The notes beneath the pieces were generated by a model that worked only from the letters and a program-made list of their open reading frames with translations, was not told where the DNA came from and made no database searches. Source: Candidatus Eiseniibacteriota bacterium (lineage in GTDB: Bacteria; Eisenbacteria; RBG-16-71-46). From it: a stretch of DNA of 59,954 nucleotides. The stretch is taken from NCBI GenBank assembly GCA_005893225.1, contig VBOT01000029.1:1-59954 (forward strand), written 5' to 3'. Made by a program: the position numbers and the translations under genes. This document shows, one piece after another, positions 9,020 to 26,265 of the stretch (positions within the stretch are counted from its first letter, which is position 1; the number at the start of each line of letters is the position of its first letter).

Positions 9020-10656
9020 TTTCGGGCGGCCGCCGCCTCGCGACGGACCAGGACCAGCGTGATGTCGTCGGTGCGCGGAGCGCCCGCCAGGAAGTCGTCG
9101 ACACGCCCGAGGATCCCACCCCGCAGCGCTTGAAGGTCCGCCGTCGCCCCCTCGGCCAGCAGCGCCTCGTGGAGCCTCCGGTCGTCGAAGAACTCCTCGC
9201 CGCGCTGCGCCTCGGGGATCCCGTCGCTGAACAGCGCCAGCAGCTCTCCGGGCGCGAGGGTCACGGTCGCAGACGAGTAGGGAAAATCCGGCAGCACTCC
9301 GAAGGGAACCCCAATGGCCGGGAGCTCGCGGAGTGTCGGGCCGAGCACGAGGCAGGGCGAGGGATGGCCGGCGTTGACGTATTCCAGGACACCCGTCGCC
9401 GGGTCGAGCCGGCCCACGAACCCGGTCACGAAGTGTCTCGCGTCGGTGCCGCGGTTGAGGATCGTCCCGAGACGGCGCGCGAGATCGGCGGGGTCGGGGC
9501 AGGTGTCGTAGAGGACGCGCGCCGAAGCCAGGAACGAGGACATGAGGAGCGCCGCCCCCATTCCCTTTCCGGTCACGTCCCCGACCACCATCAAGAGCTT
9601 CCCGTCCGCGCCCAGGTAGAAGTCGTAGAGGTCCCCTCCGACCTCGTTGCAGCTCTCCAGGAACGCGTCGATCCGGTAGCCCTCGACCTCGGGCGGTCGA
9701 GCCGGCAAGAGGCCGCGCTGGATGCGGGTCGCGGTCGCCAGCTCCTGTGCCATCCTGAGCCGCGCCTGCTCGGCCTCGAGCAGCCGGGCGTTGGTGATCT
9801 TCACCGCCGCCATGTTGGCCAGCAGCGTCAAGAGCTCGAGTTGGTCCTCGCTGAAGGAGACCGAGAGGTCCTGGCTGTCGACGTAGATCAGCCCCAGGAC
9901 CCGCTGGTTGTCGAACAGCGGCACCGCCATCGCGGAGCGCACCGCCTGGGCGACGATGCTGTGCTGGGCCTGGAACCTGGGGTCGTGCGCGGTGTCCCCG
10001 GTCAGCACCGAGGTGCAGTCCTCGAGCACCGTCCGCATGATCGAGCGCGAAAGGGCCAGCGGCTGGTTCGCCCGGCCCTGGCGGGTGCGGGCCGCGACCT
10101 GGACCGGCTCCTCGCGGTCCTCCTGCTTGAGGAGCAGGACGTAGCGCGATGCCGGCACGGCCTTCTCGACGAACACCAGGAGCTCCTCGCAGGTCTCCTG
10201 GAGGGGCCGCGGCAGCACCAGCAGCCGCCCGGCCTCGGCGAGCAGGTGGACCATCTCGCCGGCGGCCTCGCCGGTGCGGGCGCGCCGGTCGAGGATGTGG
10301 TCGACGCGCAGCTTGAGCGACGAGCCCACCACGGCGGCGTCACTGAGGCGAACCTCCGGCCCTGGCTCCCGGTCGGTCACTCGCAGCAGCAGATGCCCCA
10401 CCTCGATCTGGTCTCCGGACTTGAGCTCGACCGGCTCGCGCGCCTCGACGCCGTTCACGCGCGTGCCGTTGCGGCTGCCGAGGTCGCGGATGAAGTACCG
10501 GTCGCCGCGCCGGGTCACCTCGGCGTGCTCCTTGGATACCGTGGCGTCGGGAACGTGGATGCCGTTCTTGGAGGACCTGCCGATGCTCTTGATCTCGGCA
10601 TCGAGCGGCCAGACCAGGTTCTCGTCGCCCACGGTGCCGGACAGGTAGAGGGTCAT
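9016..10656 (-). CDS. FHA - GAF - PP2C/SpoIIE-type protein phosphatase
   Basis: An N-terminal FHA domain (SIGRSSKNGIHVPDATVSKEHAEV...RDLGSRNGTRVNG) is followed by a central GAF-like region. The C-terminus is SpoIIE/PP2C-like (RIQRGLLP...GGDLYDFY...VGDVTGKG...TDGI). Confidence 0.9.
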   Translation of the reverse strand: MTLYLSGTVGDENLVWPLDAEIKSIGRSSKNGIHVPDATVSKEHAEVTRRGDRYFIRDLGSRNGTRVNGVEAREPVELKSGDQIEVGHLLLRVTDREPGPEVRLSDAAVVGSSLKLRVDHILDRRARTGEAAGEMVHLLAEAGRLLVLPRPLQETCEELLVFVEKAVPASRYVLLLKQEDREEPVQVAARTRQGRANQPLALSRSIMRTVLEDCTSVLTGDTAHDPRFQAQHSIVAQAVRSAMAVPLFDNQRVLGLIYVDSQDLSVSFSEDQLELLTLLANMAAVKITNARLLEAEQARLRMAQELATATRIQRGLLPARPPEVEGYRIDAFLESCNEVGGDLYDFYLGADGKLLMVVGDVTGKGMGAALLMSSFLASARVLYDTCPDPADLARRLGTILNRGTDARHFVTGFVGRLDPATGVLEYVNAGHPSPCLVLGPTLRELPAIGVPFGVLPDFPYSSATVTLAPGELLALFSDGIPEAQRGEEFFDDRRLHEALLAEGATADLQALRGGILGRVDDFLAGAPRTDDITLVLVRREAAAARK

Positions 10657-12968: not shown

Positions 12969-13171
12969 GCTCTCGAGGGCGTTTCGTCTGATCTCCGCGC
13001 CCCCGCGGATGGTACGCCTGATGCACCACGCTTTCTCACCCGCCCCGTGCTCGGCAGATCGTTTTCTCCCTGGATCCACCAGCGCAGACGCACCGAGCGC
13101 GAAACTCGATCCGCGACCGCTAGTCGTTCGGATTCGATCGATGCTTGCGAGATCTGGCTTCCACACGCCCG

Positions 13172-16100
13172 ATGCCCGAGCACCGCTCGCCCGAGCGAGG
13201 AGCGGCGACTCCAGACCGGAGGCTCGTGGTGTTCGTCGGCGTGGCTCGCCAGGGGGCGTGGGCGAGCGTGTGCGCTCTGCTCGCGCTGCTCGCACCCCTC
13301 CCCGCGCATGCGGTGACCGTTCCTCCGGGCTTCGTGGTCGAGAACGCGGTTCCCGGATTCGGCTTCAACGCGCCCGTCGCGGTGGCGTTCCTCCCGGATG
13401 GCCGCTGGCTCGTGGCCGAGCGGCGCGGCCGCGTCTTCATCGTCCAGAACGGCGTGAAGAACCCGACCCCCCTGATCAACATCGAGGCCGAGGTGCTGTA
13501 TCGCGAGGATCGCGGGCTGATGTCGCTCGCCGTCGATCCCGACTTCAGGACCAATCGCTCGATCTATCTCCTCTACACCGTGGATCCCGACAGCAACGGC
13601 GTCGACGACAACGACGACGCGTTCGCCCGCCTCACGCGCTACCAGGTGAGCGCCTCCGACCCGGGCACGATCGATCCGGCCTCGCGAACCGTGCTGATCG
13701 GAAAGAGCTGGCACGAGGGGATCCCCTCCGGCTCGCCGTCGCACACCGCGGGGGCGCTGCGCTGGGGGGCCGACCGGAGCCTCCTCATCTCGGCGGGCGA
13801 CGGGGCGCAGTTCAGCCAGATGGATGCCGGGGGTCTCGACCCGGGGCTGTTCGGCCCCGACCGGACCGACCCGGACCAGGACATCGGGGCGTTCCGCGCG
13901 CAGCACCTCGGAAGCCTGGCGGGCAAGATCCTGCGCATCGATCCCCTGACCGGCGAGGGCTACCCGAGCAATCCGTTCTACGACGGCGATCCGCGCTCCA
14001 ATCGCTCGCGAGTGTGGGCGTACGGCCTCCGCAACCCGTTCCGCTTCACGGTCCGGCCGGGCACCGGCAGCACCGACCCGGCCGCGGGCAACCCCGGCTC
14101 ACTCTACGTCTCCGACGTCGGCTGGCGGACCTGGGAGGAATGTAACGTCGCCTCGAGCGGCGGCAAGAACTTCGGCTGGCCGTGCTACGAAGGCCCCGCC
14201 GCGTCGACTGCCTATCAGACCGCCGCGCCGGCTCGTCAGGGATGCGCCTCGATCGGCACCGCCGACAATCCCGGTGTCCTGACCGCGCCGCTCATCACTT
14301 ACCATCACAGCGTCCCATCGCTGAGCCAGCCTCAGGGCATCACCGGAAACGCCGCCACTGGAGGGGTCTTCTACACCGACAGCCTCTATCCGGCCTACTA
14401 CCGACAGCGCTATTTCCTCTGCGACTACGGAGCGAACTGGATCAAGGTCGCGGCCTTGGATGCCGGCGACCATCTGGTCTCACTCGATCCGTTCGCGGCC
14501 GGCGCCGACGGCCCGGTCGACATCGCCACCGACCCGCAGACCGGCGACGTCCTCTACATCTCGATCATGACCGGCGAGCTGCGCCGCATCCGCTACACCG
14601 GACCGACCGGCAACGCGCCGCCGGTGGTGGCGGCGGCGGCCACCCCGACCTCCGGGGCCGCGCCGCTCGGGGTCCAGTTCTCGAGCGCCGGGAGCTTCGA
14701 TCCCGACAACGACCCGCTCTCGTTCGGCTGGAGCTTCGGCGACGGAGAGGGATCGATCGCCGCCAGCCCCTCCCATTCCTTCGCCACTCCCGGCGTCTAT
14801 CACCCGGTGCTCACCGTGACCGACGGGCGCGGCGGGCTGAGCCGCGACACGCTCGAGATCACGGTGCTCCCGAGCGTGGGCTTCCCCTCCACCGGGATCC
14901 TCGACGACTTCAACCGGCCCGGCGCCGCGCTTGGGGCGCCGTGGGTCGGACAGACCTCCGGACTCGCGATCGACCAGAATCAGCTGGTCCAGAGCTCGGG
15001 CGCCTACGTCTCGCCGGTCTGGGGCGGCGGCGTCTTCGGTCCCGACCAGGAGGCCTTCGTCACCCTCGATGCCCTGACGAGTAGTTCGCCCGAGCACGAC
15101 CTGATGCTCAAGATCCAGGGCGAGTCCTGGAACGCCGGGAACATCAAGGTCGACTATGACGCCCGGTACGGCACGGTCTACGTGAAGACCTATACGCCCG
15201 GAGTCGGCTGGCAGAGCTACCCGGGGTCGATCCCGGTCGCGTTCCAGGCGCACGACGTATTCGGGGCTCGGGCGCTCTCGAGCGGCGACGTCGAGATCTA
15301 CCGGAACGGCGTCAAGCTCGGTACCCTCTCGGTGCGCGGCTGGCCTTACGCCTCGCAGGGAGGCAGGGTCGGCCTGCTGCTCGGGAGCGCGCTCACCTCC
15401 CGGCTCGACAACTTCGGAGGGGGAAACGTCGTCTTCCCCTCCAACGCCCCTCCCGAAGCCCGTATCGTCTCGCCGCTCGATCGCGCCTTCTTCGCGGCGG
15501 GCGACACGGTGCGGCTCGTCGGCTCGGCCAGCGACGCCGAGGACCCGGCGTCGAGCCTGCTCTTCCAATGGGAAGTCGACATCCACCACAACAACCACAT
15601 CCATCCCGACAGCTACGTGTTCGACGGGCCGAGCGCCGCCTTCGAGTTCGAGAACCACGACGACGGGACCGGCGTTCACATCGAGATCCGCCTCATCGTG
15701 ACCGACACTGGTGGCCAGAGGGACACCGCGGCCGTCGACGTCTATCCCGAGGTCGACCTCGAGCCCGGCCCGGTCTCGACTCTCGCGGACCCGGTAGGGG
15801 CGGGTAGCGCGACCGAATATCGATTCAAGATCTTCAACCGCGGCCGCATGCCGGCGCCGATCTCGCGCTGGCAGCTCACGGCCGGCGGCGTGACACTGGC
15901 CGCGGGCGACACGCTCGTCGCGGCGCGGGACAGCGTCACGATCGTGCGCAGCCTGGCAGCGCCCCTGGCCCCGGGGGCTTACACCCTGCGCGCCACGGTG
16001 GACGCGCTCGCGCAGGTGATGGAGACCCACGAGGCCAACAACGCCTGGAACGGCACGCTCACCGTCGCCGGCCCGCCGGGCCCACCGGCCGGCCGGTTCC

Positions 16101-16993
16101 CGACCACGCCCGTGCTCGACGACTTCAACCGTCCCAACGCCCCGCTGGGCGCACCCTGGATCGGACTGACCTCGGGCCTCATCCTCGACCAGGACCAGAT
16201 GGTTCAGGGCTCCGGCACCTACGCGTCGCCGGTGTGGGGCGGCTTGGCGTTCGGGCCCGACCAGGAAGCCTTCGTCACGCTGGATGCGATCACTCCGGGA
16301 GCGCCGGAGCACGACCTCATGCTCAAGATCCAGGGCGCGTCGTGGAACGCCGGTCACGTGAAGGCGATCTACGACGACACGTACAAGAAGGTCTACGTGA
16401 TGACCTACACGCCGGGAGTCGGCTGGCAGAGCTATCCCGGCTCGATCCCCGTGACGTTCTCGGCCCATGACGTGTTCGGCGCCCGGGCCCTGTCGACCAG
16501 CGACATCCAGATCTATCGCAACGGCCTCAGGCTCGGGACCCTCTCGGTGCGTGGCTGGCCCTACGCCGCCCTGGGAGGAAGGATCGGCCTCCTGCTCGGC
16601 AATGCCGCGCTGAGCCGTCTCGACAACTTCGGCGGCGGAACCGTGACGCGCCGGCCGGCCGGGGGCGGCACGGCCTCGGTCCCCGAGGTCGTCCCCGATC
16701 CCTTCGGCGGCCCCATTCCAGGGACACTCTCTCTCTCGAGCCCGTTCCCGAACCCGAGCCCGGGCGGCGTGTCGCTGAGGCTCGACCTGCCGCGGGCGGC
16801 GAGAGTCGAGATGAGCGTGTACGACGTCTCCGGCCGCTCGCTGGAGCAGCGGACATCGGACTACCGGCCCGGGCGCTGGACGCTCAAGTGGAGCAGGGCG
16901 AGCGGCGGCGCGCCGGCCCCTCCCGGCCTCTACTTCGCGCGGGTTCGCGCTGGCTCGCGGGTCTTCGAGCGTCGCTTCGTGCTGCTGCAGTGA
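13172..16993 (+). CDS. Large secreted multidomain protein: PQQ/GSDH-type beta-propeller, PKD, two copies of an unassigned jelly-roll-like domain, Ig-like, CARDB-like, T9SS-type C-terminal domain
   Basis: The N-terminus is glucose/sorbosone-dehydrogenase-like (PGFVVENAV...AFLPDGRWLVAERRGRVFIV...GLMSLAVDPDF). A PKD domain follows (FSSAGSFDPDNDPLSFGWSFGDG). The C-terminus is a FlgD-Ig/T9SS sorting domain (FPNPSPGG...VYDVSGR...GLYFARV). The start is uncertain: TTG 13145 or ATG 13172. An RR-containing signal region is present. Confidence 0.85.
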   Translation: MPEHRSPERGAATPDRRLVVFVGVARQGAWASVCALLALLAPLPAHAVTVPPGFVVENAVPGFGFNAPVAVAFLPDGRWLVAERRGRVFIVQNGVKNPTPLINIEAEVLYREDRGLMSLAVDPDFRTNRSIYLLYTVDPDSNGVDDNDDAFARLTRYQVSASDPGTIDPASRTVLIGKSWHEGIPSGSPSHTAGALRWGADRSLLISAGDGAQFSQMDAGGLDPGLFGPDRTDPDQDIGAFRAQHLGSLAGKILRIDPLTGEGYPSNPFYDGDPRSNRSRVWAYGLRNPFRFTVRPGTGSTDPAAGNPGSLYVSDVGWRTWEECNVASSGGKNFGWPCYEGPAASTAYQTAAPARQGCASIGTADNPGVLTAPLITYHHSVPSLSQPQGITGNAATGGVFYTDSLYPAYYRQRYFLCDYGANWIKVAALDAGDHLVSLDPFAAGADGPVDIATDPQTGDVLYISIMTGELRRIRYTGPTGNAPPVVAAAATPTSGAAPLGVQFSSAGSFDPDNDPLSFGWSFGDGEGSIAASPSHSFATPGVYHPVLTVTDGRGGLSRDTLEITVLPSVGFPSTGILDDFNRPGAALGAPWVGQTSGLAIDQNQLVQSSGAYVSPVWGGGVFGPDQEAFVTLDALTSSSPEHDLMLKIQGESWNAGNIKVDYDARYGTVYVKTYTPGVGWQSYPGSIPVAFQAHDVFGARALSSGDVEIYRNGVKLGTLSVRGWPYASQGGRVGLLLGSALTSRLDNFGGGNVVFPSNAPPEARIVSPLDRAFFAAGDTVRLVGSASDAEDPASSLLFQWEVDIHHNNHIHPDSYVFDGPSAAFEFENHDDGTGVHIEIRLIVTDTGGQRDTAAVDVYPEVDLEPGPVSTLADPVGAGSATEYRFKIFNRGRMPAPISRWQLTAGGVTLAAGDTLVAARDSVTIVRSLAAPLAPGAYTLRATVDALAQVMETHEANNAWNGTLTVAGPPGPPAGRFPTTPVLDDFNRPNAPLGAPWIGLTSGLILDQDQMVQGSGTYASPVWGGLAFGPDQEAFVTLDAITPGAPEHDLMLKIQGASWNAGHVKAIYDDTYKKVYVMTYTPGVGWQSYPGSIPVTFSAHDVFGARALSTSDIQIYRNGLRLGTLSVRGWPYAALGGRIGLLLGNAALSRLDNFGGGTVTRRPAGGGTASVPEVVPDPFGGPIPGTLSLSSPFPNPSPGGVSLRLDLPRAARVEMSVYDVSGRSLEQRTSDYRPGRWTLKWSRASGGAPAPPGLYFARVRAGSRVFERRFVLLQ
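14882..15430 (+). repeat. Intragenic domain repeat, copy 1 (about 183 aa)
   Basis: The sequence LDDFNRPGAALGAPWVGQTSGL...FGPDQEAFVTLDA...EHDLMLKIQGESWNAG...TYTPGVGWQSYPGSIPV...LSVRGWPYA...SRLDNFGGG is colinear with copy 2. Confidence 0.8.
16094..16645 (+). repeat. Intragenic domain repeat, copy 2 (about 184 aa)
   Basis: The sequence LDDFNRPNAPLGAPWIGLTSGL...FGPDQEAFVTLDA...EHDLMLKIQGASWNAG...TYTPGVGWQSYPGSIPV...LSVRGWPYA...SRLDNFGGG matches copy 1. By eye roughly three quarters of residues are identical. Confidence 0.8.
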
Positions 16994-17080: not shown

Positions 17081-17929
17081 ATGCGCACGCACATCGCTGG
17101 CCTCGCGGCTGCAGGGCTCCTGTCCTGGGCGGGGCTCGCAGCCGCGGACCAGTGGGACCGGAGCTTCAAGGTCACGGGGAAACCCGCCGTCCGCATCGAG
17201 ACCGACGAGGGGAGCATCCGCGTCTCGGCCTGGGATCGCCCCGAGGTGGCGCTCCACGTCGCGACCCGAGGCTGGCGCATCGCGCCCAGCGGGGTCACGG
17301 TCTCGGCGCGGCAAGCGGGCGAGCGCATCGAGCTCATCGCCCGGACGCCGCGCTTCGAATGGAACCTCTGGGGCGGCCGCTCGCTCGAGATCACCGTCCA
17401 CGTTCCTCGCCAGTCCGATCTCGAGGTGCAAGCCGGGGACGGATCGATCCGGATCGAACCGGTGGCGGGCGAGATTCGGGCGCGCTCCGGCGACGGCGCG
17501 ATCACGGCCTCCGGCCTGCGGGGGAGGATCGCGCTCCACACCGGGGATGGTCCGATCGAGGCGGTGGCCCTGGACGGAGAGCTCACCGCGACCACCGGGG
17601 ACGGCCGCATCCGCGTCGCGGGCCGGTTCGTGGGGCTCGACCTCGGAAGCGGTGACGGATCCCTCGAGGCCGAGGTCACGGCGGGCTCGCGCATGGAACG
17701 GCCGTGGAGCCTCCACACCGGCGACGGGTCGATGGAGCTGCGGCTTCCCGCCGACCTCGCCGCCGATCTCGACGCTCACACCGGCGACGGCGCGATCAAC
17801 CTCGGCATGCCGGTCGTCGTCAGCGGAGCACTCAGCCGCTCGCGGATCCACGCAGCCCTGAACGGAGGCGGGCCGCTCCTGCGCCTCTGGAGCGGTGACG
17901 GCTCGATCCGGATCGACGCGGCGCGGTAG
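17081..17929 (+). CDS. DUF4097-like putative adhesin / beta-helical repeat protein, secreted
   Basis: GGAGGA lies 7 nt upstream of the ATG at 17081. The signal peptide is MRTHIAGLAAAGLLSWAGLAAA, and GDG-S/A/P-I repeats recur (GDGSIRI, GDGAITA, GDGPIEA, GDGRIRV, GDGSLEA, GDGSMEL, GDGAINL). Confidence 0.8.
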   Translation: MRTHIAGLAAAGLLSWAGLAAADQWDRSFKVTGKPAVRIETDEGSIRVSAWDRPEVALHVATRGWRIAPSGVTVSARQAGERIELIARTPRFEWNLWGGRSLEITVHVPRQSDLEVQAGDGSIRIEPVAGEIRARSGDGAITASGLRGRIALHTGDGPIEAVALDGELTATTGDGRIRVAGRFVGLDLGSGDGSLEAEVTAGSRMERPWSLHTGDGSMELRLPADLAADLDAHTGDGAINLGMPVVVSGALSRSRIHAALNGGGPLLRLWSGDGSIRIDAAR

Positions 17930-17947
17930 CTCCGGCCCTCTGAACGG

Positions 17948-18559
17948 TTAGCTCTTCTGCTGGTATTGCCGGTCCAGCGCGTCCAGAACGTTCATCGACG
18001 CCAGGTGCTTGACCCGCGCGAGATCGATCAGGCTCTCCCGGTACCAGGGGATCTTGCCCGGACTCCAGCCCAGGTACTCGATGACCCTGAGGGCGCTCCG
18101 GCTGATCCCCGGCAGCTCTTTGACCTGCAGCAACCAGCCGGTCGGAAGATCGAGCTCCAGCGCGGTCCGATACTGGCTCAGGCGGGCGATGTCCTCGTCG
18201 ACATCGGGGCGCGGCGCGAAACCGGTCTTCGCCTTCATGGCCTCGTAGCGCTGCGGAAGGGGATCCGCGTCCGTGCCCCTCCCCGGGTGGTCGGACCCGA
18301 AGTGCGGCTGAAGCGTGCGTTCCCCGGGCTCCACCTCCGGCGCGGGACGCCCTCCGTCGAGGCTCGCCACCACGAACGCGAGGACCGCGTGGTACAGGGT
18401 GATCAGGACCCACTTCCACGAATAGGGGTCGATCACGGCGCCGATCAGCTGCGAGTGAAGGGCCTCCAGGGCCCGCGCGGCATCTTTCTGCTGATCCGAT
18501 TCCACCCACACGCCCGCGCGCTGCAGATGACCGGCCGAGGGAAATGGGCCTTGCGACAT
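17948..18559 (-). CDS. Hypothetical protein, 203 aa (no family recognised)
   Basis: The ORF is intact with GGAGGA 6 nt upstream of the ATG, 31 nt downstream of the preceding gene. The region is visibly less GC-rich than its neighbours. Confidence 0.7.
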   Translation of the reverse strand: MSQGPFPSAGHLQRAGVWVESDQQKDAARALEALHSQLIGAVIDPYSWKWVLITLYHAVLAFVVASLDGGRPAPEVEPGERTLQPHFGSDHPGRGTDADPLPQRYEAMKAKTGFAPRPDVDEDIARLSQYRTALELDLPTGWLLQVKELPGISRSALRVIEYLGWSPGKIPWYRESLIDLARVKHLASMNVLDALDRQYQQKS

Positions 18560-18590
18560 CAGAATCCTCCACGTCGTTGGTCCGGGGGGT

Positions 18591-19142
18591 TCATGCTGCG
18601 CCTTCGGTGAGGGTCACCGGAAGCTCGACTCGAACTTTGTCGAGGGCGTCGTAGAGCGGCGACAAGAAGGCTCCCGACGCCACTGCCGCGGCCAGCGGCT
18701 CGGCGTTGCCTACGATCAACCGCCCCGCCCACGACTCGCCGCCCGAGGCGACCGCACGAACTCCCAACGAGCGGCGCGTGAAAGCCAGCAGCACCTTCTG
18801 CGTGTGCCTGCCAAGACCCGCCACGTGGTCGAGGAAGAGGGTACCGTTCTCGGCCGCCCCGAGCGGGTCACCGCAGGGCGCGGCCAGCGTGGCCGAGAGC
18901 CGGGCATGCAAGGCCCCGAGCAGGCGATGCTGGTCGCGAACGCAATCCACGCACACGAAGGGGCCGAGGCGAAGCTCGCTCTCCCGGTGGAAGGCGTGGG
19001 CGACGTTCAGCCGTTGATCCACCGTCCCTCCGTGGATCAAGACGTTGAAGACATCGTGACGGTGCGACCGGACAAGCAACGCGGGGGCCGTCGATTGCAG
19101 CCCCCGCGCGAGCCAACCCGGTGAGAGTTCCACCTCGGTCAC
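18591..19142 (-). CDS. Degenerate sigma54-activator-type AAA+ core only (no Walker A lysine, no Walker B Glu, no GAFTGA, no HTH)
   Basis: The protein aligns by eye to EBP cores. NVLIHGGTVDQRLNVAHAFH matches VLLTGENGTGKELIARILH, GPFVCVDC matches PFVAVNC, and NGTLFLDHVAGL matches GGTLFLDEVGDM. RLIVGNAEPL...GAFLSPLYDAL..VELP matches RIIAATNRDL...GAFREDLFYRL..IEVP. The GTG start at 19142 overlaps the TGA of the upstream gene (GTGA). Confidence 0.65.
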   Translation of the reverse strand: MTEVELSPGWLARGLQSTAPALLVRSHRHDVFNVLIHGGTVDQRLNVAHAFHRESELRLGPFVCVDCVRDQHRLLGALHARLSATLAAPCGDPLGAAENGTLFLDHVAGLGRHTQKVLLAFTRRSLGVRAVASGGESWAGRLIVGNAEPLAAAVASGAFLSPLYDALDKVRVELPVTLTEGAA

Positions 19143-19447
19143 GACCCCAGACGGTGCCAGCTGGCCAGCGACACCCAACGGAGCGCCGGCGCGTGACCAT
19201 CGGCGGGAGCCAGCCAGCTGGCGAGAACGAGCCTCGGCCAGAACGTCTTCGCGAACTCCAGGACCTGATGGAAGTCCTCGGTCGTGCTGGCCGGGAGACT
19301 GGAAGGAAGGTCCGGATCGACGGGAGTCATCACCGACCCGCCGGAGGGGTCGAAGGGCAAGATCTGCGCATGAGCGGAGCGAGGCGCTGCCGAGAGAACG
19401 AAGAGGCATAGGAACAGCGCGATGGGCAAGGCACGAAGGGCTTTCAT
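19139..19447 (-). CDS. Small secreted protein, 102 aa (no family recognised)
   Basis: AGGAG lies 8 nt upstream of the ATG. A clear signal peptide MKALRALPIALFLCLFVLSAAPRSAHA-QI is followed by a Trp-rich C-terminal half. Confidence 0.6.
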   Translation of the reverse strand: MKALRALPIALFLCLFVLSAAPRSAHAQILPFDPSGGSVMTPVDPDLPSSLPASTTEDFHQVLEFAKTFWPRLVLASWLAPADGHAPALRWVSLASWHRLGS

Positions 19448-19594
19448 CGGAGTTCTCCTGGGTTTGGTGTTTCAAAGCGTCAGGCTGAACCGCGGCCGTT
19501 CAGGCGAGGAATGTGCCGCTTTGGCACGCCAGGAAAACTTATTTGTAAGTCCATGTGCCAAAATTAATTAGCTTTACATTCCAGCCTCCATTCA

Positions 19595-19623
19595 AGTCTA
19601 GACCTGGGCTTTAAGCTCGTCAA
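19595..19623 (-). promoter_or_regulatory. Candidate sigma70-type promoter for the three-gene cassette
   Basis: The minus-sense sequence TTGACG-N17-TAGACT lies inside the AT-rich spacer, about 145 nt upstream of the ATG at 19447. A TCGTAGAAA half-site abuts the -35 hexamer. Confidence 0.3.
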
Positions 19624-19683
19624 TTTCTACGAATGTGCGCCACGAAAATCAAGCAAGTGACTGCTGAAAAATGCGTTACATGA

Positions 19684-22600
19684 CTATCGTAGTTTTCTAC
19701 GAGTTCGTAGATTTCTACGAGATCCGCCGAATCCGTGCTTTCGCATGCGGTAGCGAATCGTGGGCTCCGGCAGACCGAGTTCGCGGGCGGCGAGGCTCTG
19801 ATTGCCGCCGGCACGTCTCAGCGCCTCTTTGAGCAGGCGCTTTTCGAGATCCTCGACCAGGTCCGAGAGACGCTTACCCCTGGCGAGCCTCATCGTCCCG
19901 GCCCGCTCCTCGAGATCGCGCGGGAGCGGAGAGGGATAAAGCACCCCCCCGGGGTTCATCGCGATCACGCGCTCGATGTAGTTCTGGAGCTCCCGGACGT
20001 TCCCGGGCCAGTCGCTCTGCATCACGGCGGCCAGGAACTCGGGGGAGAGCTCCGGCATCTCGCGCTCGAGACCGCGCGCGAACTGGGCCACGAAGTGCTG
20101 TACCAGCGCCGGGATGTCGGCCTTGCGCTCTCTGAGCGGCGGCACCTCGATCGGGATCACGTTGAGCCGGTAGAAGAGGTCCTCCCGGAAGGCGCCGTCC
20201 TCGATCTGCCGCCTCAGATCCCGGTTGGTGGCCGCGATGATGCGCACATCGACCGGAAGCGACTTCCCCCCGCCCACCGGCGTGATCTCGCGGTTCGCGA
20301 TCGCCGAGAGCAGCGCCACCTGCTGCTTGAGCGGCATGTCGCCCACCTCGTCGAGGAACAGCGTCCCCCCGTCGGCCTGCTTGAAGCGCCCCTCACGCCC
20401 GCGCACGTCGGTCGCCACGTTCGGCAAAATGCCGAACAGCTCGGTCTCGAGCAGCGTTTCGGGAATCGCGCCGCAGTTCACCGCCACGAACGGGCGCAGC
20501 CGTCGCTTGCCGCCGTGATGAAGGATGCGCGCGATCAGCTCCTTGCCGGTGCCGTTCTCCCCCGTCAGGAGCACCGTGCTACTGGTGTGGGCGGCCCGCT
20601 CGACCAGGGGCATGATGCGCATCATGGCCGAGCTCGTCCCGATCAGGCGGTGCGACTGGAACTTCACCACCGCCTCCTGCCGCAGCGAGAGGTTCTCGCG
20701 CACCAGGTTCTCGTTGGTCCGCTGCGCCTCCTCGTGACCCCGGGCCTTCTCGATCGCCACCGCCATGAGGTGCGCGAAGCCTTCGATCAGCCCCCGCTCG
20801 GCGTCCCCGAACGCCAGCGAGCGGCGCGAGTCGTCGAGATAGACCGCCCCGATCACCCGGCCGGAGAGGTACATGGGGACACACAGGATCGACCGGAGGT
20901 GCAGGTTGTCCACGCTCTCGAACGCCACGCGGGCGTCGCGCCGCGCGTCCTGGATCAGCAGGCTCCCTCGGCTCTCGGCCACGCGCTGCACCACCCGGCG
21001 GCTGTAGCCCACCGCGTCGCGGCGCATCGCCGCGTCGACCGCGCCGTGCTCCACCAGCGGGACGAGCCGGCCGCTCTCGTCATCGGCGAGCAGCAGCACT
21101 CCGCGCTCCGCATCCAGCTGCTCGACCACCATCTCCATCGCGCGCTGGCCGAGCTCGCGCAGGTCGGAAAGCGAATGCAGCAGCTCGCCCACGGAGCGGA
21201 TCAGGTCGTGATCGTGCGGCAGGACCGACGTCCGCGCCGACGAGCGGCGCAGCCAGGTGACGAGCAACGTGAGCGCCCGCTCGCGCCCGCGGCGGTCGCC
21301 GAGGCGCTCGTAGGCCGCGACCGCTTCCTCCAGCCACTTCCCCACCGCGGGCTGCCGGTCCGCCCCCGATTCGATTGCCACCTGCCCGAGCTCGGTGGCC
21401 GCGGCCGCGCGATCGGGCGGGGCGGGCAAAGCGAGGAGCCGCGCCAGGCATTTCTCGCCCGCGCCGATCCCCTCGGTGAAGCGCCCCGCCACGAAGGCTA
21501 CCTCGGCCCGGAGCTGCTGGACCAGCGCCTCCGCGTAAGGCCGGACGTCCGATCCCTCGAGCAGTCGCTCGGCATCCTCCAGCCTCCGGGCGCCCAGCTT
21601 CGCGTCTCCACGTCTGAGAGCCGCGCGGCCCGCCAGGGAGCGGATGACGGCGCCGACGGAGCGCTGCCCGGGCGAAGCCTGGCCGGCGCGATCGCACACC
21701 TCCTCGGCTTCCTCCCAGCGGCGCTGGGCCATCAAGGTGCGGGCGAGCTCGACACGACACCACTCCAGCTCGTTGGAGAGCCGCGACGCGGTGGCGAGCT
21801 CCAGGGCGCGGCGCGCCGTTCGCTCGGCTCCCCGCAGGCGCCCGGCGCACCGGCAAGCTCCGGCCAGGGCCCGCCAGGCCGAGGTCTCGAGGGCCGGCAG
21901 GTGCGCGCGCGTGAGCCGGATCGCGGCCCGCGCCTGGCGCGCGGCGTTCCGCGGGCGCCCCGTCATGGCATCGGCGTGCGCCAGGTTCGTGATCGCCGCC
22001 GCGGCGTCCCGGGCCCGCCCGTCCTCGAGTGCCATCCGGGCCACCTCGGCGTTGGCCTCGCGCATGCCCTTCCAGTCGCCGGATTCCCAGAGCAACACGC
22101 CCAGGTTGATGAGCAGCTCGCCGGCCGCGAGCCTGAGTCCGGCCGCCCGGGCGCGCCCGAGCGCCTCGCGATAGAGGCGCTCGGCCTCCGCGGGCCGCCG
22201 GCACGCGTGGGCGGCGACTGCCTGCACGCCGATCGCGCGCACCTCGCCCTGGAGCTGTCCGGCGCGCTTGAAGGCATCGACCGCTCGCGCCGCCATCGAC
22301 TCGGCGGCGTCGAGGTCGCTGGCCAGAAGCGAAAACGCGAGGGAGGTCGCCGACATCCCGAGCGCCTCGGGGTCCTGGGCCTCCTCGGCCAGGGCCAGCG
22401 CCTCGCGCGCGGCGATCGCGCCGGCCTCGACCTTCCCCAGGCTCTTCAGCCGCGCCGACTCGTTGGTGAGAAGCCGCGACCGAAGCCCGGGCGCGGCGTC
22501 GGCGAGCACGATGCCCTCCACGCCGGCCCGCTCCAGCAGGCCGGCGCGGAGACCGGCGGTGGAAAGGAGATAGCGGCGCTCGAGCCACGGTCCGGCCTCG

Positions 22601-24840
22601 CTTTCCAGCTCGAGAGCGCGCTCGAGATGGGGAATCGCGTCCGAGTAGCGACCCTGGGCGAAGAGCTCCCGGCCGGCCCGCTCGTGCCAGTGGGCCGCTT
22701 GCTCGGGAACCTCGGTCTCGGCCAGCGTGGCGGCCGCCTCGGCCAGCGCGGCGTTCCCACCCGAGCCCAGCGCCTCCGCCGCGGCCGAGAGCGCCGCCCT
22801 CGCATCTCCCGCGCCACGCAGGTGCCTGAACCTCTCCTCTGCCCCGAGCCCGGGCTCGGCCAGGATCGCGCGGTGGAGGGCGCGCCGCCTCTCGTCGCCA
22901 GCCGCCCCGAGGACCCGATCGGCGAAGGTCTGCGAGGGGAGCGCGATCTGGCCCGGGGCGGGCGTCCGCGCGAGGCCCACCCGGACCAGGAGAGCGAGCG
23001 TCTCGGGGCAGGCCGCCGACTCGATGCGCAGCGCCTTCTCGGGATCGACGGGACGCCGCCAGGCGGCCAGGGCTTCCGCCGCCCGGCGCGCGCTCTCCGG
23101 GAGCTCCAGGAATCTCTCGAGCAGCATCGGCTCGAACCCGACGGCGGCGGCCAGACCCTCGAGCGCCCTCATGTCCACCACCAGGCCCGCGCCGACCTCG
23201 GCGAGCGTCCCGCGCTCGGCGGCGAGATGCAGAACCTGGACCGTGAGCCCCGGATGCCCCGACGCCCGTTCCCACAGGAACGAGACGAGGCGATCCGGGG
23301 CCGGGTCGCCGAGACGGGCCGAGGCCAGCCTCGCCACATCGTCCTCGCCGAGGAAACCGAGCTCGACCGTGTCGGCCACCCCCGCGTCGCTCAGGAGTCG
23401 AGCCTCATCGTCGAGCTCGCCCGGGCCGGGCCGAGAGGCGATCACCCACGCTGCCGCTGGAAGGCCGGGCTCGAGGACCCAGCGGCGGATCAGAGCGCGA
23501 GCCAGTGGGTCGAGGCGATCGCCATCGTCGAGGAGGAACACAGGTGCTCGGTCGCCGAGGACCGAGACGCAGTCCGCCATCGCCTGGAGCATCGCTTCGA
23601 GATCGTGCTCGGACGGGGCGCTCGCGGTCGCCGGGGTTCCGGCCGCAGGCTCCCCGACATCCGTTCCGGCAGGGGGCGCGGGGTGCCTCGCCTGCACTTC
23701 CAGCTCCAGCCTGCGTAGCAGCGCCCGGGCAACGCCGCCCGGTCCCTCGAACCCATCGCAAGAGACGTGAACTGCCGGCCGGCCGGAGAGACTCGCCCGC
23801 GCGCTCAGCTCGCGAAGCACGGCCGACTTTCCGACCCCCGCCTCGCCCGAGATGACGACCAGGCGCGACCGCCGCCGCGCCCCCCGCTCGCTCGGGCCGG
23901 GAGCGACGAGCCGCTCCAGCGCGGCGAGCTCCCGCTCGCGGCCCACCACCACTTCGGTCCCGAGCCGCTCGCTCAGCGGCCGGCGCACGGCGGGATCGAT
24001 GCCCTCGATCTCGCGGCGCACCTCCCGGGCGTCGCTCGGCCTCTCGCGGGGCTCGGGCGCCATCAGACGCAGCACCAGCTCGACCCAGGCCAAGGGCGCC
24101 CCAGCCTCGGCCAGCGGCAAGCCGGACGGGGGACCCTCCTGCTGCAGGCCGAGAAGCCGCTCGGTCGATTCCGCCTCGAAGGGAGGGCGGCCGCAGGTCA
24201 GGGCGTAGAGGCACGCGCCCAGCCCGTAGAGATCCGAGGCCACGCTCGGCGGCTCGCCCCTCACCAGCTCCGGCGCCGCGAAGCCGGGCGTGCCGCGGTG
24301 ACCGCGGCTCACCGCCTCAATCGAGGCGCAGAAGCCGAAGTCCACGAGCCTCACGCCGCGAGGACGCCGATCGCCGGCCTCGCCCTCGAGGACCAGGACG
24401 TTCGAGGGCTTGAGGTCCCCGTGCAGCAATCCGGCCGAGTGCAGCGCCTCGAGGCCGTGGGCGACCTCGTGGCCGGCGGTCAGCAGTGCGGGCCAGTCGC
24501 CCCGGCGGATGGCCTTGTCGGCCGGGGCGCCCGGCACGAATTCCATGGTGTAGAAGGGGGTCCCGTCGGGGGACGTGCCGAGCTCGTAGACCGCGACCAC
24601 CGAGGGGTGCCGGAGGCGCGTGAGCCCGGCGAACTCGTTCCGGAGCTCGTCGAGCGCCCCGGTGGGGCTCCGGAGCCGCTTGAGCGCGCATTCCTTTCCG
24701 GTCGCGAGGTCTCGCGCCCGGAACACTTCGCCCCTGCCACCCTGCCCGAGTCGCTCCATCAGGACGAAACGCCCGGCGAAGGCTTGATCCAAAGCCGCTC
24801 CTCCTCCCGCCCCGAGACCGGCGGGCCTAGCCCGGATCAT
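19684..24840 (-). CDS. Ser/Thr protein kinase - P-loop STAND (AAA_16-like) - TPR - GAF - sigma54-activator AAA+ - Fis-type HTH fusion protein (1718 aa)
   Basis: The kinase region has GQGGRGEVF, ALKRL, HGDLKPSN, DFG and GTPGFAAPE. The STAND P-loop is ISGEAGVGKS. A long TPR-like helical region and a GAF-like region follow. The EBP core has LLTGENGTGKE, GGTLFLDEVGDM and RIIAATNRDL. The C-terminal HTH is SLAARELGLPEPTIRYRMRKHG. Confidence 0.9.
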   Translation of the reverse strand: MIRARPAGLGAGGGAALDQAFAGRFVLMERLGQGGRGEVFRARDLATGKECALKRLRSPTGALDELRNEFAGLTRLRHPSVVAVYELGTSPDGTPFYTMEFVPGAPADKAIRRGDWPALLTAGHEVAHGLEALHSAGLLHGDLKPSNVLVLEGEAGDRRPRGVRLVDFGFCASIEAVSRGHRGTPGFAAPELVRGEPPSVASDLYGLGACLYALTCGRPPFEAESTERLLGLQQEGPPSGLPLAEAGAPLAWVELVLRLMAPEPRERPSDAREVRREIEGIDPAVRRPLSERLGTEVVVGRERELAALERLVAPGPSERGARRRSRLVVISGEAGVGKSAVLRELSARASLSGRPAVHVSCDGFEGPGGVARALLRRLELEVQARHPAPPAGTDVGEPAAGTPATASAPSEHDLEAMLQAMADCVSVLGDRAPVFLLDDGDRLDPLARALIRRWVLEPGLPAAAWVIASRPGPGELDDEARLLSDAGVADTVELGFLGEDDVARLASARLGDPAPDRLVSFLWERASGHPGLTVQVLHLAAERGTLAEVGAGLVVDMRALEGLAAAVGFEPMLLERFLELPESARRAAEALAAWRRPVDPEKALRIESAACPETLALLVRVGLARTPAPGQIALPSQTFADRVLGAAGDERRRALHRAILAEPGLGAEERFRHLRGAGDARAALSAAAEALGSGGNAALAEAAATLAETEVPEQAAHWHERAGRELFAQGRYSDAIPHLERALELESEAGPWLERRYLLSTAGLRAGLLERAGVEGIVLADAAPGLRSRLLTNESARLKSLGKVEAGAIAAREALALAEEAQDPEALGMSATSLAFSLLASDLDAAESMAARAVDAFKRAGQLQGEVRAIGVQAVAAHACRRPAEAERLYREALGRARAAGLRLAAGELLINLGVLLWESGDWKGMREANAEVARMALEDGRARDAAAAITNLAHADAMTGRPRNAARQARAAIRLTRAHLPALETSAWRALAGACRCAGRLRGAERTARRALELATASRLSNELEWCRVELARTLMAQRRWEEAEEVCDRAGQASPGQRSVGAVIRSLAGRAALRRGDAKLGARRLEDAERLLEGSDVRPYAEALVQQLRAEVAFVAGRFTEGIGAGEKCLARLLALPAPPDRAAAATELGQVAIESGADRQPAVGKWLEEAVAAYERLGDRRGRERALTLLVTWLRRSSARTSVLPHDHDLIRSVGELLHSLSDLRELGQRAMEMVVEQLDAERGVLLLADDESGRLVPLVEHGAVDAAMRRDAVGYSRRVVQRVAESRGSLLIQDARRDARVAFESVDNLHLRSILCVPMYLSGRVIGAVYLDDSRRSLAFGDAERGLIEGFAHLMAVAIEKARGHEEAQRTNENLVRENLSLRQEAVVKFQSHRLIGTSSAMMRIMPLVERAAHTSSTVLLTGENGTGKELIARILHHGGKRRLRPFVAVNCGAIPETLLETELFGILPNVATDVRGREGRFKQADGGTLFLDEVGDMPLKQQVALLSAIANREITPVGGGKSLPVDVRIIAATNRDLRRQIEDGAFREDLFYRLNVIPIEVPPLRERKADIPALVQHFVAQFARGLEREMPELSPEFLAAVMQSDWPGNVRELQNYIERVIAMNPGGVLYPSPLPRDLEERAGTMRLARGKRLSDLVEDLEKRLLKEALRRAGGNQSLAARELGLPEPTIRYRMRKHGFGGSRRNLRTRRKLR
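19687..19720. repeat. Two tandem 16-bp palindromes (TCGTAG-N4-CTACGA) with 18-bp period
   Basis: The palindromes are tcgtagttttctacga (19687-19702) and tcgtagatttctacga (19705-19720). They overlap the last 12 codons of the giant kinase-EBP gene. A third half-site tttctacga lies at 19624-19632. Confidence 0.7.
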
Positions 24841-25591: not shown

Positions 25592-26265
25592 ATGATCGCT
25601 TCGGTCGGGGTTTTCCTGCTGCAACGTCGAGCCCCAGAAGGTGATCACCAAGGACAACGTCTCGGTGACGGTCGACGCGGTGATCTACTACCGCATCAGC
25701 GACCCGGTGAAGGCGACCTTCGAGGCCCAGAACTTCGCATACGCGGCCACCACGCTGGCGCAGACCAACCTCGCAACCTGATCGGCGACAAGACGCTCGA
25801 CGAGACGCTGGTGGCGCGCGACACGATCAACGCCAACCTGCGCAACCTGCTGGACGAGGCCACCAACACCTGGGCGTCAAGGTGACGCGGGTCGAGGTCC
25901 AGAAGATCGATCCGCCCGCCGACATCACCGAGGCCATGTCGCGCCAGATGAAGGCCGAGCGGGACAAGCGCGCTGCGATCCTCGATTTCGAGGGCGTCAA
26001 ACAGTCCCAGATCCTGCAGGCCGAGGGAGTGAGGCAGTCGGAGATCCTCAGGGCGGAGGGCGACGCCCAGGCCAAGGTGCTGCGAGCCACCGCGGACGCC
26101 AAGGCCATCGAGCTGGTCTCCCTGGCGGCCGAGCAGTTCTTCAAGGATCGGGCCGAGGTCAGCAAGAAGCTGGACGTGCTCCGCGAAGTGCTCGCCCAGC
26201 AGAGCAAGTTCATCGTCCCGGCGGGATCGGATCGGCCCTCGGGCGTCCTCCCCCGTGAGACCTGA
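25592..26265 (+). pseudogene. SPFH/stomatin (band 7) pseudogene: internal 5-prime deletion plus two -1 frameshifts
   Basis: SPFH homology is spread over three frames. The first block is [50 protein letters not shown], with a frame break near 25771. The second is [34 protein letters not shown], with a break in the G-run near 25872. The third is [36 protein letters not shown]. Only about 10 N-terminal codons ([10 protein letters not shown]) precede the first block, where homologs have roughly 70 more. Confidence 0.75.

Follow-up and report, generated by a model that had tools for sequence, protein, structure and literature searches.

The window analysed here, positions 1-59,954 of contig VBOT01000029.1 of a Candidatus Eiseniibacteriota bacterium (assembly GCA_005893225.1), carries three short genes, g1, g2 and g3, downstream of a gene for a 1718-aa protein that joins a Ser/Thr kinase to a sigma-54 enhancer-binding protein (STK-EBP, or kinase-EBP). 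The product of g2 keeps the AAA+ alpha/beta fold of enhancer-binding proteins (EBPs) without their ATP chemistry and is a pseudo-enzyme offshoot of this family, not an EBP. The conserved unit is kinase-EBP plus g1 plus g2, and the trio is one lineage's version of it, because the third position varies among loci. A sigma-54-type control region is predicted in the spacer ahead of g1, and we tentatively propose, at somewhat less than even confidence, that g1-g2-g3 are a sigma-54 target operon of the adjacent kinase-EBP and that g2 feeds back on the EBP ring. The genes concerned are as follows.

24840..19684, minus strand: STK-EBP (kinase-EBP) gene, 1718 aa, upstream of g1
19447..19139, minus strand: g1, 102 aa, exported peptide by prediction
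19142..18591, minus strand: g2, 183 aa, stand-alone pseudo-AAA+ protein with a GTG start
18560..18590, minus strand: 31-nt stretch between g2 and g3; ribosome-binding site GGAGGA at 18570-18565
18559..17948, minus strand: g3, 203 aa, all-alpha protein, lineage-specific

Open reading frame (ORF) calls place g1, g2 and g3 head to tail, all on the minus strand, with the GTG start of g2 and the stop of g1 overlapping as GTGA; g2 could equally well start at another GTG, at 19133. A DUF4097 gene converges on g3 from the downstream side, and no terminator-like sites were found in 17700-19900. The spacer before g1 is 236 nt long with 47.5% GC, against 71.5% for the window, and g1-g3 have a GC content of 0.66-0.69 (window 0.715; EBP gene 0.731) with GC at third codon positions (GC3) of 0.79-0.86, slightly under the window's usual ~0.9. 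The original prediction, made from the letters of this stretch, had described three ORFs of 102, 183 and 203 aa behind an AT-rich spacer and downstream of the giant kinase-EBP, linked by a GTGA overlap and then by a 31-nt gap with GGAGGA, and all of these are present; its claim of a lower GC content is modestly true (genes 0.66-0.69 and spacer 0.475 vs 0.715). The 'three-gene cassette' that it proposed holds for the g1 and g2 core, which is conserved, and not for g3 as a fixed member, as the third gene varies.

Within Pfam, g2 matches Sigma54_activat (PF00158; E 5.9e-10; 39.5 bits where the cutoff is 20.2; positions 22-167 of the 168 in the profile covered) and no other family; in NCBIfam the AAA+ portions of many EBPs were matched weakly, and in PADLOC there were weak RtcR AAA+ matches only. 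The AlphaFold2 model of g2 (25 homologs; mean pLDDT 80, residues 30-125 and 140-175 mostly >90) has the beta-alpha-beta order of the AAA+ alpha/beta subdomain, preceded by ~28 N-terminal residues that are unconserved and of low model confidence. When the model was compared with the PDB using Foldseek, the top matches were all AAA+ domains of bacterial EBPs (bEBPs: FleQ, PspF, DmpR, LuxO, FlrC and NtrC1; E ~3e-10), the AAA+ domains of FleQ and VpsR being among the best structural matches, and the g2 family profile likewise found bEBP AAA+ domains among PDB sequences (DmpR and ZraR at E ~1e-18). These searches, which the original prediction had suggested, returned PF00158 and, as top structural matches, bEBP AAA+ folds for g2, in agreement with the EBP-like core that it had described. 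No signal peptide is present in g2.

Motif states in g2 were obtained by alignment to the AAA+ domain of the neighbouring EBP and by a tally over 141 family members. Walker A reads GGTVDQRL, with Arg at the Lys position in 141/141 members, and the preceding Gly and following Ser/Thr/Glu are also lost. Walker B reads FLDH, and in place of its Glu the family members most often carry S, R, H or G; Glu is not one of these four commonest residues. Positions equivalent to the Arg fingers R162 and R168 of PspF are L/S and A/C/S, and the sensor-I Asn is lost. No GAFTGA-like motif is found in g2, the region between helix 3 and Walker B being unconserved family-wide, and no lid (AAA_lid_14, sensor II) or helix-turn-helix (HTH) match was obtained with Pfam; the chain ends ~10 residues past beta-5, right after the last alpha/beta strand, and so leaves no room for lid, sensor II or HTH. 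The motif losses listed in the original prediction (GGTVDQR, FLDH, no GAFTGA, no lid or HTH) are thus features of the family and not of this one protein.

The family has conserved features of its own in place of those lost: A-x-x-F-H-R-E-S, G-R-L-x-x-G and a near-invariant L-D-K-(V/I)-R-(V/I)-E in the last strand. Conservation peaks in the G-x-F...L-x-D-x-L-D-K segment, the counterpart of the Arg-finger face, and invariant basic or polar residues lie at the old nucleotide pocket (R44, at the Walker-A Lys position, H52, R53, D105, R141, K169 and R171). In relation to bEBPs (PF00158; PspF, NtrC1, FleQ), g2 is homologous with the same alpha/beta subdomain fold, and its operon has the upstream activating sequence (UAS)/bend/-24/-12 layout of their targets, but g2 has no Walker-A Lys, Walker-B Glu, GAFTGA, Arg fingers, lid/sensor II, or regulatory or DNA-binding domain. 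Judged from its sequence, g2 cannot be a sigma-54 activator, failing each functional criterion. Source annotations call family members 'DNA-binding NtrC family response regulator' or 'sigma 54-interacting transcriptional regulator', labels that are both contradicted by the motifs read in g2.

A word-indexed search recovered 24 g2 homologs, all of 141-226 aa, while an exhaustive profile search (no word index) recovered at least 110 cluster representatives at E<=1e-30. Family members are nearly all 120-240 aa long (140 of the best 150 profile matches are <=270 aa), the listed members score 101-234 bits on the family profile vs at most 91 bits for true EBPs, and all members with a source-named organism come from Candidatus Eisenbacteria. 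Ten long profile matches were considered as g2 fusions and rejected: each is an EBP in which two or three AAA+ domains stand in tandem and add up their scores, and is therefore unrelated to g2. EBP-family chains in which a sigma-54 AAA+ domain is repeated twice or three times in tandem, an unusual architecture, occur in public metagenomes (P0079, P0125, P0159, P0164, P0174, P0175 and P0193), some of them carrying FHA or FleQ N-terminal domains; they too are unrelated to g2. That g2 arose by recent duplication of the AAA+ domain in the neighbouring EBP was also rejected, the two being 27-30% identical, with profile scores no higher than for unrelated EBPs.

The ratio of nonsynonymous to synonymous substitution rates (dN/dS) with respect to a close relative, locus L004, is 0.47 for g1, 0.42 for g2 and 0.27 for g3, vs 0.12 for the EBP C-terminus, and g1-g3 give 0.33-0.67 with more distant relatives; values of 0.33-0.54 speak for selection and against decay. 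g1-g3 appear to evolve fast yet under constraint, as real genes and not chance ORFs. The higher ratios (0.27-0.47 vs 0.12) and the slightly lower GC3 would be expected if the ORFs were decaying remnants or unrelated adjacent housekeeping genes, an explanation that is effectively refuted and retains a negligible probability: the families are large and conserved with invariant residues, no housekeeping family is matched, and gene order, promoter, ribosome-binding site and start context are conserved at 28-50% identity. The original prediction had itself allowed that the 183-aa ORF might be an unconserved remnant without synteny, or that the genes might show matches to housekeeping families; g2 is conserved and strictly syntenic with kinase-EBP, and Pfam, NCBIfam and PADLOC gave no such match.

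The gene neighbourhood was compared across 38 loci from metagenomes and metagenome-assembled genomes (numbered with the prefix L). In every locus with enough upstream DNA, the end of a kinase-EBP ortholog (50-98% identical over its C-terminal part) lies 520-620 nt upstream of g2, and g1 occupies the interval; the sole exception is L021, where g1-g2 are followed by a response-regulator EBP (RR-EBP) and kinase-EBP converges from the other side. Adjacency of g2 and kinase-EBP is kept down to g2 relatives of 28-36% identity (L020-L022), g2 is closely linked to or overlaps g1, and the order of the genes, the promoter, the ribosome-binding site and the start context are kept across lineages sharing only 28-50% identity. 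With respect to the question raised in the original prediction, whether the trio always stands beside a kinase-EBP, the g1-g2 pair was always adjacent where the flank sufficed, and g3 was not constant.

Alignment of twelve distinct spacers from related loci defined the following elements between the kinase-EBP gene and g1.

19705..19720, no strand assigned: UAS palindrome 1, TCGTAG-N4-CTACGA, perfect, overlapping the last codons of STK-EBP
19687..19702, no strand assigned: UAS palindrome 2, a perfect TCGTAG-N4-CTACGA at a distance of 18 bp from palindrome 1; the final three bases fall in the stop region of STK-EBP
19617..19632, no strand assigned: UAS palindrome 3, TCGTAGAAATTGACGA, non-coding, 70 bp from palindrome 2
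19541..19575, minus strand: AT-rich tract resembling an integration host factor (IHF) site, with TAAT and CA(A/C)-N4-5-TT(A/G) conserved in columns ~183-206 of the spacer alignment
19504..19517, minus strand: sigma-54-type promoter, GGCAC-N5-TCGC, with -24 GG and -12 GC at exact consensus spacing

The promoter sequence is CGGCACATTCCTCGCC at 19518-19503. In the spacer alignment the GGCA..T.GC columns are invariant, forming GGCAC-N5-T(C/G)GC, and the motif lies ~166 nt after the EBP stop in 18 of the first 19 loci and at the same offset in 29/30 loci with enough upstream DNA, the exception being an error-rich contig. The predicted transcription start site near 19493 would give a ~46-nt leader before g1, and the spacer ends in GGAGG and the g1 start codon. 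Palindrome centres are ~108, 178 and 196 bp upstream of the -24 element. Across the window, seven matches to the palindrome were found at <=2 mismatches, vs 1.2 expected, and only the three in the spacer cluster. Their positions are conserved in the spacer alignment; half-sites differ between lineages and agree among the three copies within each lineage. The AT-rich tract presumably acts as an IHF-like bending site between UAS and promoter, to judge from consensus resemblance only. A further candidate, TGGCAC at 19560-19555 (TGGCACATGGACTTAC), which falls within the IHF-like tract, was rejected as the promoter because its -12 spacing is off by one and the conserved -24/-12 lies 40 nt further on, at 19517-19504. 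No Rfam match to a non-coding RNA was found in the spacer, and a hairpin at the predicted 5′ end was discarded, as it is not conserved in L004.

Palindromes 1 and 2 also code for the basic tail of the EBP (...SRRNLRTRRKLR; last ~12 codons, 19720-19684). Conservation of the UAS as a by-product of coding this tail was rejected: palindrome 3 lies outside coding sequence, and so do all the palindromes of L021 (7395-7520), which, like the promoter, stay ahead of g1 there although the EBP gene is elsewhere; the EBP of that locus ends differently, without the basic tail. This indicates that regulatory constraint dominates over tail coding. The spacer is accordingly read as a putative sigma-54-type control region (three UAS palindromes, IHF-like tract and -24/-12), conserved in position. 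Its presence makes the cassette most likely the target operon of the EBP, in which case any inhibition of the EBP by g2 would constitute a feedback loop.

Pfam domains in orthologs give the order of the 1718-aa STK-EBP as Ser/Thr kinase, AAA_16 (STAND), TPR, GAF, sigma-54 AAA+, lid and HTH_8. Its Walker A (GENGTGKE) and Walker B (GTLFLDEV) motifs and its Arg-finger region (FREDLFYRLN) are intact. The L1 loop is ELFGILPNVATDVRG in place of GAFTGA, with NVATDV lying in ELFGILP-NVATDV-RG at residues ~1470-1490, and a loop of the form x-(V/T)-A-T-(D/G)-V is present in all kinase-EBP orthologs (L004, L007, L012, L014 and L016-L022), so that the Thr is kept and the Phe replaced by Ala. The Phe of GAFTGA is needed for activation by PspF. 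The kinase-EBP loop is apparently a conserved, re-invented one, and would either have co-evolved with its target or imply that another EBP serves the promoter.

The latter possibility, with the promoter served by another EBP (e.g. the RR-EBP found within the operon elsewhere) and kinase-EBP acting on the palindromes as a sigma-54-independent regulator or repressor, is compatible with the other alternatives considered below and in our view quite improbable. NVATDV or VATGV at L1 in all kinase-EBP orthologs speaks for it, as do the third genes of L009-11 and L021, which encode an RR-EBP with GAFTGA or GSFTGA (canonical in the RR-EBPs of L009 and L021); there are also EBP-family proteins without GAFTGA that act without sigma-54, such as TyrR and some NtrC (cf. 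bioRxiv 10.1101/2023.06.06.543975). However, the lineage of the window keeps promoter and palindromes with no RR-EBP in the operon, the palindromes travel with kinase-EBP in all loci, and the variant L1 is strongly conserved with its Thr kept, which argues for a working contact and not for loss.

Under the scheme that we favour, kinase-EBP would bind the three palindromic enhancers, two of which overlap its own last codons, and bending at the AT-rich tract would bring it to the -24/-12 promoter, leading to transcription of the operon. The g2 product, which keeps the fold responsible for protomer contacts in AAA+ rings, would then dock on a protomer of the EBP ring via its conserved former Arg-finger face, the side that normally brings the fingers to the ATP site of the neighbour. 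Having no Arg finger, ATP turnover or L1 loop to supply, it would cap or poison the ring, either by blocking ring closure or by silencing one or two sites. The operon encoding g2 would thereby come under negative feedback, or its output would be tuned. The original prediction had suggested that the dead subunit poisons or tunes the neighbouring EBP ring, an idea that agrees with the observations and is partly supported; the control region in the spacer, the variability of the third gene and the unusual L1 loop of the EBP had not been noted in it. Anti-activators of bEBPs are often expressed from the regulon that they restrain. We infer three things here from the sequences: use of this promoter by the EBP, contact between g2 and the EBP, and the sign of the effect. 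In favour of the scheme as a whole are the loss of catalytic and trans-acting residues, the peak of conservation on the former Arg-finger face, the co-location with kinase-EBP and the sigma-54 promoter; in favour of the EBP using that promoter is the position of the enhancers, which are joined to the end of its gene and move with the g1-g2 unit. A more specific version, in which g2 represents a new class of sigma-54 anti-activator by subunit mimicry, an AAA+-core copy driven from the EBP's promoter that caps the ring and yields a self-limiting pulse of exported peptide, is possible but somewhat unlikely.

Several points weigh against this proposal. The g2 profile scores the neighbour's AAA+ domain at 59-81 bits, vs up to 91 for unrelated EBPs, so that g2 is no closer to its neighbour than to unrelated EBPs and shows no signature of a dedicated partner. 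The lid is part of AAA+ ring interfaces, and g2, which has none, may not fit the ring. With its non-canonical L1 loop (Phe of GAFTGA replaced by Ala), the neighbouring EBP may not drive sigma-54 itself, and the canonical RR-EBP within the operon in two lineages could be the real activator. The invariant Arg at the Walker-A Lys position, together with the other invariant basic residues, could mean that g2 binds a ligand instead. Finally, the scheme leaves the exported g1 without a role.

Alternatively, g2 would have its function away from the EBP ring, either as an adaptor whose dead P-loop fold binds a ligand or phosphoprotein or as a partner or substrate of the kinase domain; it would work with g1 (e.g. 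in its handling or sensing), with the EBP only controlling expression. The clustering of invariant basic and polar residues at the former nucleotide pocket, the tight and partly overlapping linkage of g2 to g1, the lack of specific similarity between the g2 profile and the neighbour's AAA+ domain, and the presence of cyclic di-GMP-binding FleQ and VpsR among the best structural matches would all fit. Set against these, no ligand-binding motif was recognised in g2; g1 is exported and g2 has no signal peptide, so the two could be in direct contact only before export; and the most conserved surface of g2 appears to be the former Arg-finger face, which in AAA+ proteins is an interface between protomers. 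We regard such an adaptor as rather unlikely.

A positive role on the ring is more doubtful: g2 and kinase-EBP would be obligate partners in a mixed assembly, as HrpR and HrpS are, or g2 would nucleate or stabilise the ring, and the unusual L1 would work only in the mixed complex. The strict co-occurrence of g2 and kinase-EBP is consistent with this, the conserved non-canonical L1 of kinase-EBP may need help, and both co-dependent EBP pairs (PMC3105312) and interacting paralogous EBPs (PMC9542535, PMC10084136) are on record. But g2, with no L1 loop, Arg fingers or ATP site, cannot supply what the EBP lacks, and its location behind the promoter that it would activate makes its first synthesis depend on itself (a bootstrap problem), unless transcription of the EBP gene reads through into it.

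For the capping or poisoning of the ring that we propose, there are partial parallels among known systems. Anti-activators that attach to the AAA+ domain are a common means of restraining bEBPs, examples being FleN, PspA and NifL (PMC8528422), and HrpV is a further anti-activator binding a bEBP AAA+ domain (PMC3105312). PspA/PspF, FleN/FleQ, HrpV/HrpS and NifL/NifA resemble the logic suggested for g2, that of a small EBP-controlled protein binding AAA+ and lowering output, which on the g2 side is a proposal. Unlike g2, however, none of these is a degenerate AAA+ copy: PspA is a coiled coil, FleN a MinD-type ATPase, HrpV a small regulator of type III secretion and NifL PAS/kinase-like, and neither g1, g2 nor g3 matched the PspA, FleN, HrpV or NifL families in Pfam, NCBIfam or PADLOC. 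Side-by-side AAA+ paralogs thought to share one ring are known in HrpR/HrpS, VnfA/AnfA and RedR1/RedR2 (PMC3105312, PMC9542535, PMC10084136), but partners of the HrpR/HrpS type are complete, catalytically competent EBPs with GAFTGA and HTH, whereas g2 is truncated and dead.

Loss of the GAFTGA loop within PF00158, as in g2, is seen in TyrR and in Rhodobacter and Caulobacter NtrC, but proteins of this type are full-length DNA-binding regulators, many of them binding ATP, while g2 has 183 aa and no DNA binding (cf. bioRxiv 10.1101/2023.06.06.543975). Dead AAA+-fold subunits that set ring geometry or limit activity, as suggested for g2, are found in the clamp-loader delta/delta' and in doped PspF heterohexamers; PspF subunits mix into heterohexamers, and a statistical model of doping with inactive subunits predicts reduced output (PMC3467059). 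Natural dead AAA+ subunits of the clamp-loader type differ from g2 in being permanent stoichiometric parts of other machines. Searches of the literature, incomplete in coverage, found nothing on a stand-alone dead EBP core or a natural dead sigma-54-activator subunit, and, with the same incomplete coverage, nothing on sigma-54 control in Eisenbacteria. A defence system was rejected as an explanation for the locus: g1 and g3 had no PADLOC match, and those of g2 were limited to weak ones with RtcR AAA+.

g1 most likely encodes a small peptide exported via the Sec pathway, as predicted from a Sec-type signal peptide (K/R n-region, hydrophobic core and A-H-A|Q) identified by inspection and hydropathy. 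The tail contains four Trp, and the signal peptide and Trp-rich tail noted in the original prediction were both recognised. A g1-like ORF precedes g2 in 13 of the 15 loci examined, and 11 of 13 aligned orthologs have an A-x-A|Q signal peptide (the site is offset in L012, and L020 and L022 differ). In most orthologs P-S-G-G-(T/S) stands 5-6 residues into the mature chain, the middle is variable and rich in Ser/Thr/Pro, x-W-(L/I/V)-(A/T) is present and the C-terminus is basic. L020 and L022, which form the most distant clade, instead have an equivalent ORF of 75 aa whose signal peptide is combined with a hydrophobic segment at the C-terminus. Searches of Pfam, NCBIfam and PADLOC gave no match for g1.

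The word-indexed search recovered 24 homologs of g3 (190-212 aa), all in the same locus type, and the description of g3 as an orphan in the original prediction is not borne out. Alignment of the homologs revealed an N-terminal conserved block (WVES..QKDAARALE.LH.QLI.AVIDPYSWKW) and a C-terminal one (LGWNPG...DLARVK..AS..VLDALERQY). The AlphaFold2 model has six helices (pLDDT 87). No Pfam, NCBIfam or PADLOC match was found for g3, and no significant fold neighbour in the PDB, the best Foldseek match being the HEPN protein AF_0298 (E 0.25; TM 0.37/0.55). An R29-x5-H35 sequence sits in the first helix, its His being Asn in 2/23 homologs; assignment as HEPN is not supported at this Foldseek E value. 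Comparison of the g3 profile with PDB sequences gave nothing meaningful (a 17-residue match to two designed repeat proteins, E 3e-4). Derivation of g3 from the RR-EBP that holds the same slot elsewhere was rejected, as there is no profile similarity. The gene in the third position varies as follows.

203-aa family, in the window's clade: L001-5, L013-15, L023-25, L027, L038
~125-aa degenerate receiver-like protein: L006, L008, L012, L016, L017, L019, L028-30, L032, L035, L036
Full receiver-AAA+-HTH EBP with GAFTGA or GSFTGA: L009-11, L021
Third slot without a match to any of these: L018, L020, L022, L031, L033/34

The profile of the receiver-like third gene found only receiver domains in the PDB, and weakly (CpxR, E 0.0046); the protein has a Pfam PDE8A_N match below cutoff, and the acidic pair after beta-1 is missing. 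g3 is most likely a lineage-specific accessory, in a slot otherwise held by a receiver-like protein or an RR-EBP.

Other features of the surrounding DNA were recorded. A gene for an FHA-GAF-SpoIIE (PP2C phosphatase) protein (9016..10656, minus strand) lies ~9 kb from kinase-EBP and is also present in L004; its product is a possible Ser/Thr-phosphorylation partner of the kinase domain. In the window, as in L001 and L014, NfeD/Band_7 genes lie upstream of kinase-EBP; in L020 their place is downstream of the locus. In the window, the Band_7 (stomatin-like) gene beside NfeD (25617..26253, plus strand) matches its L014 ortholog in three different frames, which change near 25772 and 25873; the first ~67 residues are lacking, and the gene is either a pseudogene or affected by assembly errors.

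Comparison with L004 (ENA ERZ28573580, scaffold_3691) showed ~100% identity in the flanks (21847-19950 and 17565-16866), whereas a ~2.35-kb block (~19950..17600) is only 81-93% identical, with synonymous divergence (dS) of 0.23-0.28 inside vs 0.045 outside. This block runs from the HTH end of the EBP through the enhancers, the promoter and g1-g3 into the convergent DUF4097 gene, whose 3′ end it includes, and looks like a recombination tract swapping the whole module or a strain-chimeric assembly. A 1282-aa GSDH/PKD/CARDB surface protein (13145..16993, plus strand) contains two copies of a ~530-nt module (~14900-15429 and ~16115-16644), with the motif DDFNRP..LGAPW.G.TSGL ... RLDNFGGG and reciprocal 79%-identity cross-matches with L004.

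Annotations of the g2 family as NtrC-type response regulators or sigma-54 regulators need correcting. Sigma-54 activators are a main model for the mechanical work of AAA+ rings on a target, and the locus offers a compact predicted circuit of enhancers, promoter, activator and candidate inhibitor, from the uncultured phylum Candidatus Eisenbacteria, that could be rebuilt in E. coli or in vitro. If the proposed feedback of g2 on the EBP ring is true, natural 'dead-subunit doping' would be an evolved control mode for AAA+ transcription activators, the counterpart of doping in the laboratory, and g2 would be the first bEBP brake to consist of a degenerate AAA+ core copy, the known brakes PspA, FleN, HrpV and NifL all being unrelated proteins.

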